Part shown: piece by piece, positions 9,088 to 36,265 of the stretch
Layout: each line of letters begins with the position of its first letter
Position numbering within the stretch: the stretch's first letter is position 1
DNA from: Escherichia coli
GTDB taxonomy: Bacteria; Pseudomonadota; Gammaproteobacteria; Enterobacterales; Enterobacteriaceae
Strand: one strand, 5' to 3'
Assembly (NCBI RefSeq): GCF_016903815.1
Contig: NZ_CP069973.1
Length of the DNA stretch: 64,000 bases
The notes under the pieces: model-generated
Database searches by the model: none
Seen by the model: the letters and a program-made list of their open reading frames with translations, nothing else
Told to the model about the DNA's origin: nothing
Position numbers and translations under genes: made by a program

Positions 9088-9885
9088 TTAGAACATTACC
9101 TTATGACCGTACTGCTCAAGAATGCCTTTCACGCGTTCCATGGTCTCTTTCTTCGGTGGTTTAACACCATCAAGTTTGTATTCTTCACCCATCGCCACCC
9201 ATTTGTGTTTGCCAAGTTCGTGGTAGGGGAGAAGCTCGATTTTCTCAACGTTGCCCATATCACGGGTAAATTCACCGAGGCGATGCGCTGAATCGTCATC
9301 GTCAGACCAGCCTGGGACAACAACGTAGCGGATCCACACCTTCACATTTTTGTTCGCCAGATATTTGGCGAACTCCAGCGTGCGGTGGTTTGAAACTCCA
9401 ACCAGATTTTGGTGGATCTCGTCGTTCATCTGTTTGAGATCGAGCATTACCAGGTCGGTTACTTCCAGCAGTTCATCAATCACCGGATCGTAACGACGAA
9501 CAAAACCGTTGGTGTCCAGACAGGTATGAATGCCTTCTTTTTTGCAGGCGCGGAACCAGTCACGAACAAACTCAGCTTGCAGGATTGCTTCACCGCCGGA
9601 TGCGGTAACGCCGCCGCCGGAAGCGTTCATAAAGTGGCGATAGGTCACCACCTCTTTCATTAAATCTTCAACGGTAACTTCTTTACCGCCATGCGTGTCC
9701 CAGGTGTCGCGGTTATGACAATACAGGCAGCGCATCAGGCAGCCCTGGAAAAAGGTGATAAAGCGAATACCCGGGCCGTCTACGGTTCCACAGGATTCAA
9801 AGGAGTGAATGCGACCAATAACTGACTTGGTAGCCCCCGCCGCAGCGGTATTTTCTGTTGTATTACAATTAGTTAAATTACTCAT
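9088..9885 (-). CDS. pflA: pyruvate formate-lyase activating enzyme (radical SAM); 5' end rebuilt by prophage-derived sequence
   Basis: Radical-SAM CxxxCxxC motif (CLMRCLYC) and body of PflA from ...[22 protein letters not shown]; the first 20 codons ([20 protein letters not shown]) lie in prophage-side sequence upstream of the att core. Confidence 0.85.
9814..9826. repeat. attL core (13-bp direct repeat ACCAATAACTGAC)
   Basis: Identical 13-mer at 43269-43281 at the opposite prophage end; lies within pflA codons 2-5 (native numbering). Confidence 0.6.
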
Positions 9886-9916: not shown

Positions 9917-10912
9917 TTATGGACGCATTATGGACATTCCTGACACCGGGTTAAGAGTCACAGCATCTTGTAAGAAATCCGGTGCAAAGTGTGCGTAGGT
10001 CATAGTTTGCTGAATGTTAGAATGACCCAGGATGCGCTGCAATGTGATTATGTTACCTCCATTCATTATAAAATGTGTGGCAAATGTATGCCTCAAAACA
10101 TGCACTGCCTGTCCGTCAGGTAAATCGGGTTTTACTTCCCTGAGAGCGTTGCGCACTTTGTAGTAACTGGCATTAAAAAGCCTGCCTGAATTTTTGGTCT
10201 TGATCCGTTTAATCAGGTCCTGCGAAACGGGAATTGTCCTGCGCTTTCCGTTTTTAGTTTTCATAAACGTAACCATCTGGTTAATGATGTGTTCAGCTTT
10301 CAAATTAGACACTTCACTCCAGCGTCCACCAGTAGAAAGGCAGACCAGAGTTGCATTTAACTCATCACCATCAAGCATGGATAACAGCCGCGTAATCTCT
10401 TCACTGGACAAAAAAGCCATTTCCGTAACAGCTTCACGTAACCGCTTAACCTCACGGAACGGGTTGTGAGAGTGATATTCACCGGCGTCAATTAACTTGG
10501 TGAACATCCCGCTCATTATTGCCAGATGCCGATTTACGCTGGCTGGTTTTAGGCCATCGTTCATCATTACAACGCGATAATCAGTTATCGTTTTCTTTGT
10601 TAGCTGGTCCGCCCTGGACACTCCCATCTCGGCAAATTTGGCGATTATTGTCGTCAAACGCCCTCGTTCAATATCTCCACGCTCATGTGATTTTCCGTGA
10701 TATATCCACCATCTGCCTAACAACTCTGTAAGAGTTCGGCGGTCGGCCGGCTTCTCCAACCACTCTTTGTTGTGGTAGTTAACCAGGACATGACGTTCGA
10801 ATGCTTGAGCTTCACCTTTAGTTTTAAATTTCCGCCTGATACGTTTTCCATCTGCACCCTGCGGTCTGACGTCCACTTCATAACGACCATCATCGAGCTT
10901 TTTAATAGACAT
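9917..10912 (-). CDS. int: phage tyrosine integrase
   Basis: 331 aa; C-terminal catalytic region with HVLRHTFAT...GHSNIQQTMTYAHF (R-H-R-Y type); adjacent to att core. Confidence 0.9.
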   Translation of the reverse strand: MSIKKLDDGRYEVDVRPQGADGKRIRRKFKTKGEAQAFERHVLVNYHNKEWLEKPADRRTLTELLGRWWIYHGKSHERGDIERGRLTTIIAKFAEMGVSRADQLTKKTITDYRVVMMNDGLKPASVNRHLAIMSGMFTKLIDAGEYHSHNPFREVKRLREAVTEMAFLSSEEITRLLSMLDGDELNATLVCLSTGGRWSEVSNLKAEHIINQMVTFMKTKNGKRRTIPVSQDLIKRIKTKNSGRLFNASYYKVRNALREVKPDLPDGQAVHVLRHTFATHFIMNGGNIITLQRILGHSNIQQTMTYAHFAPDFLQDAVTLNPVSGMSIMRP

Positions 10913-11005
10913 AAAGCCCTCCGATGACGCTGTTTACTTCTACTACTTGAAAATTAATGCAATTTTCTTTCGTACATTTACTGCACACATATGCTGAATA
11001 AATCG

Positions 11006-11317
11006 TCAGCCAGTCTTTTGGTCTGAGTGGTGCAAGGTTGTTGAGTCTTGCCCAATGTGCGCGAGCGCCGGGGCTATTTGTCCGCCAGCGGGATCAGTTT
11101 CATCAAACATGAACCAGTCACGGTACTTGCGAAATCTTTCTGGCTTGAAAAATTTCATACCTGCGTCAAAAGACATCTTTACTTTTCCCTGCTCATATCC
11201 AGCATAGGTGTTGTAGTTAATTCCAGTTAATTCAGCAACTTGCTTCCTTGTCATTCTTTCTGATTCCCGAATAAGTGCGAGTTTCTCTGCTTGAGATGTG
11301 ATTTGTGTATTTGACAT
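11006..11317 (-). CDS. phage immunity repressor (P2 C-like, HTH)
   Basis: Small HTH protein (MTRKQVAELTGINYNTYAGYEQG) divergent from the early operon, next to int as in P2; start codon uncertain (11317 or 11365). Confidence 0.6.
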   Translation of the reverse strand: MSNTQITSQAEKLALIRESERMTRKQVAELTGINYNTYAGYEQGKVKMSFDAGMKFFKPERFRKYRDWFMFDETDPAGGQIAPALAHIGQDSTTLHHSDQKTG

Positions 11318-27953: not shown

Positions 27954-28383
27954 TGCCGTCACGGTGCTGAAAACCAGTCCCGAGATGCTGCGGATATTCG
28001 TGGATAACGGGAGTATTGCCTCCACGCTGGCGACGTCGCTGTCATTCGAAAAGCGTTACACGCTCAATGTCATTGTGACCGACTTTACCGGTGATTTTGA
28101 CCTGCTCATCGTGCCGGTGCTGGCGTGGCTGCGGGAAAATCAGCCCGACATCATGACCACCGACGAAGGCCAGAAAAAGGGCTTCACGTTTTATGCGGAC
28201 ATCAACAATGACAGCAGCTTTGATATCAGCATCAGCCTGATGCTGACCGAGCGCACGCTGGTCAGTGAGGTGGACGGCGCACTGCATGTGAAGAATATCC
28301 CGGAACCTCCGCCGCCGGAGCCGGTCACTCGCCCGATGGAGCTTTATATCAATGGCGAACTGGTGAGCAAGTGGGATGAATGA
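27916..28383 (+). CDS. tail completion protein (P2 gpR-like)
   Basis: 155 aa, size and position as P2 R. Confidence 0.7.
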   Translation: MLKPDSLRRALTDAVTVLKTSPEMLRIFVDNGSIASTLATSLSFEKRYTLNVIVTDFTGDFDLLIVPVLAWLRENQPDIMTTDEGQKKGFTFYADINNDSSFDISISLMLTERTLVSEVDGALHVKNIPEPPPPEPVTRPMELYINGELVSKWDE

Positions 28384-28828
28384 GTTTAAGCGTTTTGAAG
28401 ACCGGCTGACCGGGCTGATTGAATCACTGTCACCATCAGGGCGTCGGCGACTGAGCACCGAACTGGCGAAACATCTGCGGCAGAGTCAGCAGCGCCGGGT
28501 GATGGCACAGAAAGCCCCGGACGGCACACCCTACGCACCACGCCAGCAGCAGAGCGCCAGAAAAAAGACCGGTCGTGTTAAGCGAAAAATGTTTGCGAAA
28601 CTTATCACCAGTCGTTTTTTGCATATCCGCGCCAGCCCGGAACAGGCATCAATGGAGTTTTACGGCGGAAAGTCACCGAAAATCGCCAGTGTGCATCAGT
28701 TCGGTCTGTCGGAAGAAACCCGGAAAGACGGTAAGAAAATTGATTATCCGGCGCGTCCTCTGCTCGGCTTTACCGGTGAGGATGTGCAGATGATTGAAGA
28801 GATTATCCTGGCTCACCTTGAGCGTTAG
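28376..28828 (+). CDS. tail completion protein (P2 gpS-like)
   Basis: 150 aa, size and position as P2 S. Confidence 0.7.
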   Translation: MNEFKRFEDRLTGLIESLSPSGRRRLSTELAKHLRQSQQRRVMAQKAPDGTPYAPRQQQSARKKTGRVKRKMFAKLITSRFLHIRASPEQASMEFYGGKSPKIASVHQFGLSEETRKDGKKIDYPARPLLGFTGEDVQMIEEIILAHLER

Positions 28829-28857
28829 TTTTATCCAGGCAGAGGCTGATGCGCAAT

Positions 28858-28894
28858 TAAACATTGAGCGGCCATGCTGGTCGCTCAATGTTTA
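28858..28894. repeat. perfect 13-bp inverted repeat (TAAACATTGAGCG / CGCTCAATGTTTA) with 11-nt loop
   Basis: Read directly from the sequence; sits between convergent S and the cargo gene, so it could be a bidirectional terminator. Confidence 0.6.
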
Positions 28895-28899
28895 GAGGT

Positions 28900-29685
28900 T
28901 TATGAGTGATTTTTATTTGATGCTTTGTATTCTAAAACCTTCTTATTGGCGTAAAAGAATTTTGTATATGACAGGAATATAACCAGACCTGAAGTGAAAT
29001 AGACGAGGGATAGTATTAATAATGCTTTTTTGTGACTGTTATTGTCTTTAATCTCCTGGCTTAACCATTCGGAGTCCTCCTCGTTTAACTGTAAGAGCTT
29101 ATTGCAGGCGATCTCAGGAAGTGTGTCTTTTATAAATACGTTTTGCAGTCTCTTGCAATCGGCAAGGCTATAAGTTTTATTAAATTCAACTGCTTTATTT
29201 TTGAAGGATAAAAGAACTTTGTCACTATAAACATAGTACATCATGTTTTTATATGGTATGCCTATGGCATCCCTTACTATAACGGATTGTTCGTTGTGTA
29301 TGTAACATGCGAGGAGAATGTAAAAAATACTGGCCAGAATTACAATTATTGTTTTAATTACGTGTGGTGGTTTTGTTATGTCACCCCAGATGCGAGTAAG
29401 GAAAAAATACGATGTTTTTAGTTTTCCATCAATCAGTCCCTGCTGTATCATTCTCACATTTTCAATGCCTGATACATTGATTCCGTTAATTATTTTAAAT
29501 AGTTGAATGTCGCGCCACTCGCGGTCAAGTCTTTTTAATTTTTTGTCTGAATATCCAAAATTGAGATAATGTGCAATAAGCCTCATAAGGTTACTTTTAC
29601 CAAAGCTAAAAAATGCTAATACTGCAAAGCTACAAAGGAAAAAAACGATTAGCCCCCACACATTAGTCACATTATAGCTGACCAT
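28900..29685 (-). CDS. cargo membrane protein (three predicted TM helices), function unknown
   Basis: 261 aa, AT-rich, opposite orientation to flanking late genes, at the P2 orf30 variable position between S and V. Confidence 0.5.
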   Translation of the reverse strand: MVSYNVTNVWGLIVFFLCSFAVLAFFSFGKSNLMRLIAHYLNFGYSDKKLKRLDREWRDIQLFKIINGINVSGIENVRMIQQGLIDGKLKTSYFFLTRIWGDITKPPHVIKTIIVILASIFYILLACYIHNEQSVIVRDAIGIPYKNMMYYVYSDKVLLSFKNKAVEFNKTYSLADCKRLQNVFIKDTLPEIACNKLLQLNEEDSEWLSQEIKDNNSHKKALLILSLVYFTSGLVIFLSYTKFFYANKKVLEYKASNKNHS

Positions 29686-29768
29686 TACGCTCTCCTTGAA
29701 TGTTGTCTGGTAGTTCTACAAATGAATCCAGATAGCATAACTTTTATATATTGTGCAATCTCACATGC

Positions 29769-30404
29769 ATGAACACTCTCGCAAATATTCAGGAACTCGC
29801 GCGCGCACTGCGCAACATGATTCGCACCGGCATTATCGTCGAAACCGACCTTAACGCCGGTCGCTGCCGTGTGCAGACCGGCGGCATGTGCACCGACTGG
29901 CTTCAGTGGCTGACCCATCGTGCCGGACGTTCACGCACATGGTGGGCACCTTCCGTGGGGGAACAGGTGCTGATTCTGGCCGTGGGCGGTGAACTCGACA
30001 CGGCGTTCGTTCTGCCGGGGATTTATTCCGGCGATAACCCTCCGCCGTCTGCGTCGGCGGATGCCCTGCACATACGTTTCCCTGACGGGGCGGTGATTGA
30101 ATATGAACCCGAAACCAGTGCACTCACGGTAAGCGGAATTAAAACGGCCAGCGTGACGGCTTCTGATTCTGTTACTGCCACGGTGCCGGTGGTCATGGTG
30201 AAAGCATCAACCCGCGTCACCCTGGACACCCCGGAGGTGGTCTGCACCAACAGGCTGATTACCGGCACGCTGGAAGTGCAGAAGGGCGGGACGATGCGCG
30301 GCAACATTGAACACACCGGCGGTGAACTCTCATCAAACGGTAAGGTACTGCATACCCATAAACACCCCGGCGACAGCGGCGGCACAACCGGGAGTCCTTT
30401 ATGA
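29769..30404 (+). CDS. baseplate assembly protein V (spike)
   Basis: 211 aa from internal Met; gene order V-W-J-I as in P2. Confidence 0.75.
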   Translation: MNTLANIQELARALRNMIRTGIIVETDLNAGRCRVQTGGMCTDWLQWLTHRAGRSRTWWAPSVGEQVLILAVGGELDTAFVLPGIYSGDNPPPSASADALHIRFPDGAVIEYEPETSALTVSGIKTASVTASDSVTATVPVVMVKASTRVTLDTPEVVCTNRLITGTLEVQKGGTMRGNIEHTGGELSSNGKVLHTHKHPGDSGGTTGSPL

Positions 30405-32194: not shown

Positions 32195-34219
32195 ATGAGC
32201 ACAAAATTCAAAACCGTTATCACCACTGCCGGTGCAGCAAAGCTGGCAGCGGCAACCGCGCCGGGAGGGCGGAAGGTCAACATTACCACGATGGCCGTCG
32301 GGGATGGCGGTGGTAAATTGCCTGTCCCGGATGCCGGACAGACCGGGCTTATCCACGAAGTCTGGCGACATGCGCTGAACAAAATCAGCCAGGACAAACG
32401 AAACAGTAATTATATTATCGCAGAGCTGGTTATTCCGCCGGAGGTGGGCGGTTTCTGGATGCGTGAGCTTGGCCTGTACGATGATGCGGGAACGTTGATT
32501 GCCGTGGCGAACATGGCCGAAAGTTATAAGCCTGCCCTTGCCGAAGGCTCAGGGCGTTCGCAGACCTGCCGCATGGTCATCATCGTCAGCAGTGTGGCCT
32601 CAGTGGAGCTGACCATTGACACCACAACGGTGATGGCAACGCAGGATTATGTTGATGACAAAATTGCAGAACATGAACAGTCACGACGTCACCCTGACGC
32701 CTCGCTGACCGCAAAAGGTTTTACTCAGTTAAGCAGTGCGACCAACAGCACGTCTGAAACACTGGCTGCAACGCCAAAAGCCGTTAAGACGGTAATGGAT
32801 GAAACGAACAAGAAAGCGCCATTAAACAGCCCTGCACTGACCGGAACGCCAACGACGCCAACTGCGACAAAGGGGACTAATAATACTCAGATCGCAAACA
32901 CGGCTTTCGTTATGACCGCGATTGCCGCCCTTGTAGACTCGTCACCTGACGCACTGAATACGCTGAACGAGCTGGCAGCGGCGCTGGGTAACGACCCGAA
33001 TTTTGCTACCACCATGACTAATGCGCTTGCGGGTAAGCAACCGAAAGATGCTACCCTGACGGCGCTGGCGGGGCTTGCTACTGCGGCAGACAGGTTTCCG
33101 TATTTTACGGGGAATGATGTTGCCAGTCTGGCAACTCTGACAAAAGTCGGGCGGGATATTCTTGCGAAATCGACCGTTGCCGCCGTTATCGAATATCTCG
33201 GTTTACAGGAAACGGTAAACCGAGCCGGGAACGCCGTGCAAAAAAATGGCGATACCTTGTCCGGTGGACTTACTTTTGAAAACGACTCAATCCTTGCCTG
33301 GATTCGAAATACTGACTGGGCGAAGATTGGATTTAAAAATGATGCCGATGGTGACACTGATTCATACATGTGGTTTGAAGCAGGCGACAACGGCAATGAA
33401 TATTTCAAATGGAGAAGCCGCCAGAGCACCACAACAAAAGACCTGATGAATCTTAAATGGGATGCTTTGTATGTTCTTGTTAAAGCCCTTTTCAGCAGTG
33501 AAGTAAAAATATCGACAGTCAATGCACTGAGGATATTTAATTCATCTTTTGGTGCTATTTTTCGTCGTTCTGAAGAATGCCTGCATATCATCCCTACACG
33601 AGAGAATGAGGGAGAAAATGGTGATATAGGGCCACTACGCCCCTTTACGCTTAATCTCAGAACTGGTCGGATAAGCATGGGGCATGGTCTTGATGTTACA
33701 GGGGATATATTTGCAAAACGTTTTGCAATTAACAGTAGTACCGGCATGTGGATTCATATGCGTGACCAGAATGTTATTTTGGGACGCAATGCGGTATCCA
33801 CCGATGGTGCGCAGGCATTACTTCGTCAGGACCACGCTGATCGCAAATTTATGATTGGTGGACTGGGGAATAAGCAATTTGGCATCTACATGATTAATAA
33901 CTCAAGGACAGCCAATGGCACCGATGGTCAGGCGTACATGGACAACAATGGCAACTGGCTTTGTGGCTCGCAAGTTATTCCTGGCAACTATGGCAATTTT
34001 GATTCCAGATATGTGAAAGATGTTCGACTTGGTTCACAGCAATATTATGGAGTGAACAACTGGCAAACATGGAATTTCCAGTGCCCGTCAGGTCATGTAT
34101 TGTCTGGTATTAATGTTCAGGATACAGGGTCCAACTCTGCCGATAATATAGCGGGCGTTTATTACAGACCCGTTCAAAAGTATATAAATGGCACCTGGTA
34201 TAATGTAGCGAGCGTTTAA
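32195..34219 (+). CDS. tail fiber protein H
   Basis: 674 aa; conserved N-terminal baseplate-attachment region and Thr/Ala-rich repeats, divergent C-terminal receptor-binding part. Confidence 0.8.
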
Positions 34220-34220
34220 T

Positions 34221-34748
34221 ATGATGCACTTAAAGAAAATAAAAGCGGGTAACGCTAAAACACTGGAACAGTATGAGTTAACAAAGAAACACGGAGTTAT
34301 CTGGCTTTACTCTGAGGACGGAAAAAACTGGTATGAGGAAGTGAAGAACTTTCAGCCAGATACAATAAAGATTGTTTACGATGAAAATAATATTATTGTC
34401 GCTATCACCAGAGATGCTTCAACGCTTAATCCTGAAGGTTTTAGCGTTGTCGAGGTTCCTGATATTACCGCCAACCGACGTGCTGATGACTCAGGGAAAT
34501 GGATGTTTAAGGATGGTGCCGTGATTAAGCGGATTTATACGGCAGACGAACAGCAACAACAGGCCGAATCACAAAAGGCCGCGTTACTTTCCGAAGCTGA
34601 ATCAGTTATCCAGCCGCTGGAACGCGCCGTCAGGCTGAATATGGCGACGGATGAGGAGCGCGCACGACTGGAGTCATGGGAACGCTACAGCGTTCTGGTC
34701 AGCCGTGTGGATCCTGCAAATCCTGAATGGCCGGAAATACCGCAATAA
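34221..34748 (+). CDS. tail fiber assembly chaperone G
   Basis: 175 aa immediately after H. Confidence 0.7.
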
Positions 34749-35038
34749 GTTGTATGATATCTGGAGTGAGCTAACGTATCTATGGCACAGAGTAAAACTT
34801 AATCTGACAGTCTGCTCTGTACCAAAAGCGGAACTTGCTTACATCGTGCTATGTTAGTTTGCTGGGAGCAGGTCATTATCTACGTGATTGCTATTTTATA
34901 ACTTGGATAAAATGGGGGATGAACATAATATCGAGACAGTGATTGCAGAGTTAGTCATTATAGGCGGGCATCAGTTCATGCCGGATCTCTAATGCAATTA
35001 TCAGGAAAATATGGGACGTTTTATCAATCAGAGGAAAT

Positions 35039-36265
35039 ATGTTACAGTTCAGCTTTGTATCAAATGACGTTGTTATGACTTACGACGGTGACAGCGGAGA
35101 ACAAATAATTTGGGTTTGGGAGAGTTTAAATAAATTTCAAACAGTATGCATTTCACGCATTTTTAACTTTCAACTCCAGGACTTGAGAAACCCACCGTCA
35201 ACCGTTCAGGATTTTAATGATTATGAATATTCCTTTAATTTTGGCACGCTTAATAATGAATACATAACAGTTCCGGGACGGATTCTAAGCATTAATCGAG
35301 ATGTCCTTATACATAAGTCCATCAAGCTTGAAAGGAAAGTATTTGCGTCAGAACGCAACGTCTCCATTTTTGGTCGGCTTTCAAAACTACTCGATCACAC
35401 TAATCCCATCATCATCGGAGGAGATAAGTCGGAAGCTATACCAAAAAGCGTATTCCAGGAGTTGCAAAGTAAATTCCCCAACACAGGGGAACTGGATCGC
35501 TATGCTAATGCAAGGGTTCACGCTATTCTCGCAGGTTATCTTGATGGTATGAAAGATGCTCGCGAACGGTATGAACATTACCTAAACAGAAAAACAGTGA
35601 TCAGAAAAACCGACAAACTGGATTTAGAAGTTTTAAATAAGCTCGAAATTGAGAAATATACACTCATAAGAGACATTATCCAGGATGCGTTGAATAACAA
35701 AACTAACTTGTCTGAAGATGACTGGCAGAGCCTGATGATACCCTTCATCACATTACTTTTTCCAAAATATATCAAGGTCCTCGAGAAGGTTAAAATTTTC
35801 GACTATTACTCTAATCCTTCGGCTAAAACAAATCGGTTTATAGACATTGCACTGGTGGATGCAAACGGCAACCTTGATATCATCGAAGTCAAAAAGCCGT
35901 TTGATGATAAGATCCTTCGCAAGACGCCCTATCGCGACAACTATATTCCTACATCAGAACTTAGCGGCGGTATTATGCAGGCTGAAAAGTATATTTTTCA
36001 TTTATCTAAATGGGGTGTTAAGGGTGAAAAAGAGCTTACGAATGCCTACAAGAATTCTCTGCCAGCGGGAATGTGTATTCGTATATCTAACCCAAAAGCC
36101 ATCATCATTGTCGGGCGCGATCAGATAGCGAACGGTAACATGACCGACGGTCAGTTGCTTGATTTTGAGATAATCAAACGTAAGTACGCCAACATGATAG
36201 ACATATTGACGTACGACGACCTGTTGCGTCGACTTAATAATACGATTGAAGCATTGAAAGGTTGA
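35039..36265 (+). CDS. cargo protein with C-terminal PD-(D/E)xK nuclease-like motif (possibly Shedu-like), function unknown
   Basis: 408 aa, AT-rich; motif RFIDIALVDANGNLDIIEVKKP (D...D...E-x-K) near residue 275-295; located at the P2 Z/fun variable position between G and FI. Confidence 0.5.
   Translation: MLQFSFVSNDVVMTYDGDSGEQIIWVWESLNKFQTVCISRIFNFQLQDLRNPPSTVQDFNDYEYSFNFGTLNNEYITVPGRILSINRDVLIHKSIKLERKVFASERNVSIFGRLSKLLDHTNPIIIGGDKSEAIPKSVFQELQSKFPNTGELDRYANARVHAILAGYLDGMKDARERYEHYLNRKTVIRKTDKLDLEVLNKLEIEKYTLIRDIIQDALNNKTNLSEDDWQSLMIPFITLLFPKYIKVLEKVKIFDYYSNPSAKTNRFIDIALVDANGNLDIIEVKKPFDDKILRKTPYRDNYIPTSELSGGIMQAEKYIFHLSKWGVKGEKELTNAYKNSLPAGMCIRISNPKAIIIVGRDQIANGNMTDGQLLDFEIIKRKYANMIDILTYDDLLRRLNNTIEALKG

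Follow-up and report, generated by a model that had tools for sequence, protein, structure and literature searches.

Bacteriophage P2 carries three genes, old, tin and fun(Z), which are annotated in the P2 record as excluding lambda, the T-even phages and T5, respectively. All three are nonessential, lie on the minus strand of the record, have a low GC content and are bounded by terminators. Outside P2, phage P22 encodes SieA, a single-gene inner-membrane protein of 164 amino acids (aa) with three transmembrane (TM) helices, the gene of which lies antisense directly after the last late-operon gene, and phage HK97 encodes gp15, a small YebO-like inner-membrane moron that is expressed from the prophage and blocks genome entry (PMC3594210). 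Here, we analyze a gene that resembles each of these systems in part and that lies on a stretch of 64,000 nucleotides of Escherichia coli DNA (assembly GCF_016903815.1, contig NZ_CP069973.1), hereafter the window. Judged by its sequence, this gene is orf30 of bacteriophage P2, an already known, nonessential accessory gene of the P2 lineage, and the best explanation that we can offer for it, tentatively and by analogy, is that of a prophage-expressed inner-membrane exclusion factor against heterologous phages, acting at the genome-entry step.

The identity of the gene was established by megablast of window positions 28400-30200, which align with phage P2 (AF063097, 8939-10739) at 97.9% DNA identity over 1801 bp and with no indels. 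The encoded protein is identical to P2 Orf30 (AAD03281.1, 'putative 30.4 kDa protein') at 258/261 residues, the substitutions relative to P2 being L41F, V109I and I141T, and it matches the phrog_2407 profile from end to end (residues 1-261 on profile 1-261, E=1.8e-148). Length, position, orientation, terminator hairpin and Ogr site are likewise the same in P2 and in the window, so that what the original prediction had taken for cargo at the orf30 position is P2 orf30 itself. The annotation of orf30 in the P2 record is 'nonessential' alone, PHROGs labels the family 'unknown function', and earlier comparisons of P2-like phages list the function as unknown, with the S-V junction as one of three regions where these phages differ (PMC3091744; PMC2771037; PMC6823313). 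The gene, its flanks and the signals around it are as follows.

28900..29685, minus strand: orf30 coding sequence (P2 Orf30 / phrog_2407), 261 codons plus TAA stop, from the list of open reading frames (ORFs)
28376..28828, plus strand: gpS (tail completion), left flank, last gene of the O operon
29769..30404, plus strand: gpV (baseplate spike), right flank, first gene of the V operon
29692..29697, minus strand: Shine-Dalgarno sequence AAGGAG, 6 nt before the orf30 ATG, read directly from the sequence
28858..28894, no strand assigned: hairpin between the converging S and orf30, equal to P2 feature 9397-9433
29700..29727, plus strand: binding dyad for the late activator Ogr in the divergent P_V promoter, equal to P2 feature 10239-10266

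The reading frame runs from an ATG at 29685 to 28900 on the minus strand, antisense relative to both flanking tail genes, and encodes a product of 261 aa. Its GC content is 0.34 (0.37 at third codon positions) and that of the flanks 0.55-0.62; the GC profile dips to 0.34-0.38 over the gene, with sharp steps at ~28.8 and ~29.75 kb. The original prediction of a 261-aa AT-rich antisense gene between S and V was thus borne out, but its placement inside the late tail operon was not, as orf30 sits at the boundary of two late operons, past the annotated O-operon terminator and ahead of the Ogr-dependent P_V promoter (P2 record annotation). orf30 is a real gene rather than a chance ORF, because seven sequenced alleles all retain the 261-codon frame with a ratio of nonsynonymous to synonymous substitution rates (dN/dS) below 1. 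The hairpin, which in P2 is the annotated O-operon terminator, starts 6 nt past the orf30 stop (RNA fold -22.4 kcal/mol, z = -5.0) and probably also serves as the 3' end signal of orf30. It thereby provides the terminator of its own that a moron carries, though it is common to the O operon and its U-tract is weak. Rfam matches of the hairpin are all sub-threshold, and a partial one to Rev72 (24 bits vs a gathering threshold of 289), which is an antisense RNA in soft-rot Enterobacteriaceae, probably reflects hairpin similarity and nothing more. A 77-aa ORF at 29685-29918 on the minus strand, antisense to the 5' end of V and overlapping the orf30 start codon in TAATG, is probably a chance ORF because of its high GC and its location within the V coding sequence and the P_V promoter.

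The homologue search proposed in the original prediction revealed a family much broader than P2. While a word-indexed search yielded five clusters only, an exhaustive profile search covering 1.84 billion representatives found 44 phrog_2407 clusters at 50% identity, of which ~25 are full length (250-271 aa). They stem from Enterobacterales (Yersinia, Pectobacterium, Cronobacter, Sodalis, Serratia and Enterobacter) and from metagenomes, and all are annotated as hypothetical. Ten out of ten scanned distant members were assigned to phrog_2407, and reciprocal tblastn from distant members led back to P2 Orf30 with E=1e-7 to 4e-11. Among 34 loci gathered from genome look-ups and two viral-contig scans, the order V(-), Orf30(+), S(-) is found in 31 (~17 of 19 distinct sequence types), usually with a gap of 109-120 bp between V and Orf30; one exception is a contig end (L002). 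Homologues from other lineages share only 20-32% identity with P2 Orf30, whereas R, V, W and J of the same loci share 56-82% and S 45-49%. The GC content of Orf30 is nevertheless 0.30-0.36 in all lineages, compared with 0.42-0.62 in the flanks. Fixed position, low sequence identity and constant low GC across lineages lead us to read Orf30 as a long-standing, fast-diverging resident of its slot, not as randomly acquired cargo, and its low GC as a maintained property rather than a mark of recent acquisition.

Several loci depart from the simple arrangement. In a rearranged, metagenomic P2-like element (L034/L035) the homologue lies beyond R, and the S-V slot holds a candidate defence gene. A decayed P2-like remnant, consisting of V, W and a J fragment beside chromosomal genes (L014), has two phrog_2407 paralogues in tandem.

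L035 731-2056 (also in L034): PDC-S59, PADLOC candidate, 441 aa, E=2e-196
L014 6001-6771 and 6900-7658: tandem phrog_2407 paralogues, 26% identical to each other

The slot of Pectobacterium prophages (L006 9024-10749; L007 4689-7474) has an added phrog_9373 protein and an ORF6N-type anti-repressor, with a further Gp49/HTH_3 (HigB/HigA-like) pair in L007, and in Cronobacter prophages (L009 6965-7899) V is separated from the Orf30 homologue by a DUF7480 protein and another of 180 aa.

Within E. coli, 463 of 5426 complete genomes (~8.5%) carry alleles with at least 80% DNA identity, at 481 places that are all chromosomal. P2-type V occurs at 1810 places in 1582 complete E. coli genomes, hence ~27% of the junctions are occupied. 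Of the cultured-phage records that match the flanks (Peduovirus), 20 out of 76 carry orf30. The empty records among those listed all have a single, identical span of 927 bp; in R18C alone the slot holds an unrelated ORF, on the same strand as the tail genes. The S stop and the V ATG mark the boundaries of orf30 presence. In W-phi (L044 530-595), the interval from S stop to V ATG is a 66-bp sequence unrelated to that of P2, with its own GC-rich hairpin, GCCGCCGG...CCGGCGGC, directly ahead of the V ATG. Since carrier and empty records differ as whole S-V intervals, as W-phi and the 927-bp span illustrate, the 940-bp block of hairpin, orf30 and Ogr site and the short junction appear to act as alternative cassettes. 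In the sense of Hendrix and Juhala, orf30 has further marks of a moron, namely a distinct base composition and presence in some close relatives with clean absence from others. The slot is binary in cultured P2 relatives, being occupied by orf30 or empty, whereas tin/old and Z/fun are regions of high turnover; together with the tenure of the family in the same slot across genera, this makes the term cargo misleading.

Selection on orf30 was assessed from seven alleles, those of the window, of P2 and of five further phages, with the window allele as reference. All have 261 codons, and dN/dS is 0.25-0.51, compared with 0.05-0.16 for R, S and V; W is mostly at 0-0.10, with one pair at 0.32 that results from three changes of each kind. 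dN in orf30 is 5-10 times that of its neighbours. By region, dN/dS is ~1.2 for residues 1-28 (the N-terminus and TM1), 0.38 for loop 1, 0.56 for TM2, 0.24 for loop 2 and 0.79 for TM3 and the tail. As all frames are intact and dN/dS is below 1 and lowest in the loops, the alleles indicate that orf30 is functional and evolving fast, with constraint mainly in two extramembrane domains. A dispensable or decaying passenger, without current function and kept by linkage, would fit a nonessential gene that is missing from most close relatives and has no phenotype known after >25 years. This explanation is very improbable, however, and the selection analysis disfavours it: both loops have a dN/dS well below 1, no allele is disrupted, and even where identity has dropped to 20% the family has kept its conserved motifs, its invariant Cys pair and its length.

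The three TM helices of the original prediction, which had also proposed a topology prediction, correspond to three hydrophobic windows of 19 residues (Kyte-Doolittle means 2.25-2.58) at residues ~9-28, ~109-130 and ~221-240. Topology was derived from charge bias over 29 homologues and an AlphaFold 2 (AF2) model, which is confident (pLDDT 83.6, pTM 0.72). Orf30 is accordingly predicted to be an alpha-helical inner-membrane protein with its N-terminus out and its C-terminus in, a topology consistent over the 29 homologues. The predicted segments, with window coordinates, are listed below.

29602..29661, minus strand: TM1, residues ~9-28, hydropathy 2.41, AF2 helix 6-28
29362..29601, minus strand: loop 1, residues 29-108, predicted cytoplasmic helical domain, helices 30-40, 48-67, 74-86 and 91-94
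29296..29361, minus strand: TM2, residues ~109-130, hydropathy 2.58, helix 109-134
29029..29295, minus strand: loop 2, residues 131-219, predicted periplasmic domain, strands 141-173, helices 174-179 and 189-198
28903..29028, minus strand: TM3, residues ~220-240, and basic C-terminal tail 241-261, hydropathy 2.25, continuous helix 202-260

The N-terminus before TM1 is short, has 0 K/R in the 29 homologues and is predicted to be periplasmic. Loop 1 (~80 aa) has a net charge of +5 family-wide and the highest regional conservation (0.54), with the signature D59-x-Q61-L-F-[KR]-x-x-N-G68-[IV]-N-V ... D/N76 ... G87-x-L, in which G68 and G87 are invariant in the family. Loop 2, modelled by AF2 as a domain of ~85 aa with a 4-stranded sheet and two helices, has a net charge of about 0 and exactly two Cys, 14-19 residues apart, in 29/29 homologues; the pair, Cys177 and Cys194 here, probably forms a disulfide that stabilises the periplasmic domain. 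The C-terminal tail, predicted to be cytoplasmic, has a net charge of +2.1 and conserved N247 and K254. In size and fold, Orf30 is similar to DUF6216, uncharacterised membrane proteins of proteobacteria. The Pfam family (PF19723) was matched by 3/29 Orf30 relatives at E<=1e-3 and by 6/29 at E<=0.1, with no match for P2 Orf30 itself, and fold matches in the AlphaFold database (AFDB) comprised a 'DUF6216 family protein' (TM-score 0.43-0.47) and about 60 similar uncharacterised proteins.

This architecture, in which a periplasmic disulfide domain is combined with a conserved cytoplasmic domain, resembles a transmembrane adaptor or sensor, and it raises the alternative of a lysogenic-conversion factor apart from phage defence. 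Orf30 would then modify or sense the envelope and improve host fitness, for example through lipopolysaccharide (LPS)/O-antigen assembly, as a transporter, in resistance to colicins, tailocins or the type VI secretion system (T6SS), or in stress signalling. Morons often serve host physiology (PMC3594210), orf30 is kept in decayed remnants beside chromosomal genes (L014 and L002), and E. coli from humans and animals commonly carries it. Against this, no similarity to an envelope-modifying enzyme or a transporter was found in Pfam, NCBIfam or structure searches, and the strict link to P2-like tail modules would be unexpected for a general fitness gene. Orf30 also appears too small, with too few TM helices, in comparison with known O-antigen-modifying enzymes. 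We consider an envelope factor of this kind rather unlikely.

An exclusion factor against heterologous phages is instead suggested by the company that orf30 keeps. The low-GC genes on the minus strand of the P2 record are orf30, fun(Z), tin and old (GC 0.33-0.35 vs 0.50 for the genome), and orf30 has every feature that unites the other three, which are proven exclusion genes, as a class. Like orf30, fun(Z) lies between two late operons with a terminator alongside, while tin and old lie between gene A and cos; unlike orf30, the three have no recorded membrane role and are located in high-turnover hotspots. Like old, tin and fun(Z), orf30 would be expressed from the prophage as a lysogenic-conversion gene, and since it encodes a single membrane protein, Orf30 would act at the envelope, interfering with genome entry across the inner membrane. 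Expression in lysogens, exclusion activity, inner-membrane location and the disulfide are all steps that we infer. The divergence of Orf30 (20-32% identity, compared with 56-82% for R, V, W and J) is that of genes in conflict, and the two tandem paralogues in L014, 26% identical, as well as PDC-S59 in the S-V slot of one relative, fit such a role.

The surrounding prophage also speaks for exclusion. Mapping of the whole P2 record onto the window by blastn places a P2-like prophage at ~9.9-43.2 kb, with 96-98% identity to P2 from cox to A and in the late genes. Differences between this prophage and P2 lie in the integrase/immunity, tin/old and Z/fun regions; the latter two, both variable regions, have other content, including recognised defence systems (a type VI retron, PDC-S15 and Shedu).

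16001-16393: 130-aa ORF without match, at the P2 orf91/tin/old position
16418-16750: HTH_VI of a type VI retron, E=7e-30, at the P2 orf91/tin/old position
16689-17666: RT_VI of a type VI retron, E=1e-105, at the P2 orf91/tin/old position
17775-19139, minus strand: PDC-S15, candidate defence gene, E=9e-98, at the P2 orf91/tin/old position
35039-36265, plus strand: Shedu SduA (DUF4263), PADLOC E=1e-219, GC 0.40, at the Z/fun position

All genes in 16001-19139 are of low GC (0.33-0.36). The Shedu gene is on the plus strand like the late genes, whereas P2 fun(Z) is on the opposite strand. The int/C region (9947-11084; end 43244) has just 66-68% identity to P2, and the prophage probably has an integrase or immunity type other than that of P2. 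The C-terminal part of the tail-fibre gene H and gene G (32788-34836) are 88-94% identical to P2 with blastn gaps; their divergence exceeds that of the remaining late genes, in keeping with a host-range module.

SieA of P22 and gp15 of HK97 provide models for genome-entry exclusion by a small membrane protein, and both resemble Orf30 in part. SieA shares with Orf30 its antisense location directly after the last late-operon gene and the three TM helices, which for Orf30 are predicted, and its sequence types, which are <30% identical and have a conserved cytoplasmic motif, form a further parallel. However, SieA lacks a large periplasmic domain and is shorter than the 261 aa of Orf30. Furthermore, SieA excludes P22 itself, whereas P2 lysogens accept P2 and P4 DNA. 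Like orf30, the gene for gp15 is a GC-deviant accessory gene embedded among tail genes, but its homologues are mostly non-phage bacterial proteins, whereas Orf30 has 261 aa and two extramembrane domains and is nearly always found in prophages; its description as a much smaller protein sets gp15 apart from Orf30 (PMC3594210).

Several observations weigh against exclusion of heterologous phages as the role of orf30. No homology with SieA was detected (hhalign probability 0.2%). Among the PADLOC-DB v2 defence hidden Markov models, no family matched Orf30 at E<=1, Pfam and NCBIfam gave no match (Pfam even at E<=10), and no structural analogue was found in PDB or BFVD. P2 lysogens can be superinfected by P2 and allow plating of P4, a phage that uses P2 tails; the P2 allele hence has no strong self-type exclusion and does not block P2-type injection. 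Expression from the prophage is not supported by the upstream region either, as the minus strand upstream of orf30 holds no sigma-70-like site with at least 9/12 matches and, in 13 lineages whose V-orf30 intergenic regions were aligned, no promoter facing orf30 is conserved. In the searchable literature, we found no published phenotype or experimental study of orf30. A functional screen in which E. coli fragments were selected against T4, lambda-vir and T7 yielded seven systems of P2-like prophages, located at tin/old and fun, and none was reported at S-V, though 47/71 strains carried P2 portal genes (PMC9519451). Hotspot studies cover tin/old and Z/fun and do not list S-V (PMC9122126; PMC9519451; bioRxiv 2024.10.15.618418). 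Finally, typical mobile defence genes are not restricted as this family is, namely to a single slot in a single phage lineage, and the restriction could point to a function in the biology of the phage itself.

Such a role would be in P2's own infection cycle, with Orf30 made during lytic growth, for example in lysis timing, in blocking re-adsorption or superinfection (as T4 Imm and Sp do) or in passage through the envelope. The family is lineage-locked to the S-V junction, near the lysis cassette and the spike gene, across genera, and the start of orf30 is 14 bp from the late-activator dyad, with a constant divergent intergenic region of 110-120 bp in most lineages. In the alignment of this region, the V start and the late-activator dyad (CAA...GTT...CACAACA) are conserved. 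A lytic role would also fit the entry of P4 and P2 into P2 lysogens, since the prophage would not express orf30. On the other hand, orf30 is annotated as nonessential and is absent from ~73% of close P2 relatives, for example the viable W-phi and L-413C. It is oriented against the late genes and converges with the heavily transcribed O operon. The P2 promoters P_P and P_O share one common activator site, with starts 55-56 bp to either side, and by this geometry the equivalent position for orf30 lies 27 nt inside the coding sequence, which makes Ogr-driven divergent transcription of full-length orf30 in P2 unlikely. Identity as a holin, antiholin or spanin is not supported, as no such family was matched in Pfam or NCBIfam and orf30 is antisense to Y-K-lysABC. 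A function in the P2 cycle appears improbable.

Single membrane proteins at such positions had been suggested in the original prediction to act in superinfection exclusion or abortive infection, and by analogy this idea is reasonable, as is, more generally, an accessory and host-directed role. As an abortive-infection effector, Orf30 would sense infection via one of its two extramembrane domains, cytoplasmic or periplasmic, and then kill the infected cell by depolarising the inner membrane or making it permeable, which we regard as quite improbable. Exclusion at genome entry can also be cast in a more specific form, which is a long shot: phrog_2407 might be the founding member of a lineage-locked, rapidly diversifying class of inner-membrane immunity proteins in Peduoviridae. 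In this form, the disulfide-bonded periplasmic domain would recognise incoming contractile-tail injection machinery, either of heterologous P2-like phages or of R-type tailocins derived from such tails, while a host partner, itself conserved, would be what the conserved cytoplasmic domain anchors or signals to. Specificity would then be set by the diversity of alleles and by tandem stacking, much as by the immunity genes for polymorphic toxins.

P2 is a reference temperate phage, and old, tin and fun each opened a line of research in phage defence, which leaves orf30 as the only one of its four AT-rich nonessential minus-strand genes without a known phenotype. New here are the breadth of the family and its positional fidelity, its fast but constrained evolution, the low GC that it maintains, the structure of the slot as a binary pair of cassettes, and a predicted topology that places a Cys pair in the periplasm. 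orf30 is present in about a quarter of P2-type prophages, and the family is position-fixed across Enterobacterales while diverging to 20% identity. If orf30 had no role in exclusion or immunity, it would be merely a well-known hypothetical gene. The topology, the Cys pair, the cytoplasmic motif and the panel of alleles make its function testable with simple genetics, and if orf30 does encode an exclusion or immunity factor, defence catalogues such as PADLOC would gain a family of membrane proteins that they now lack.
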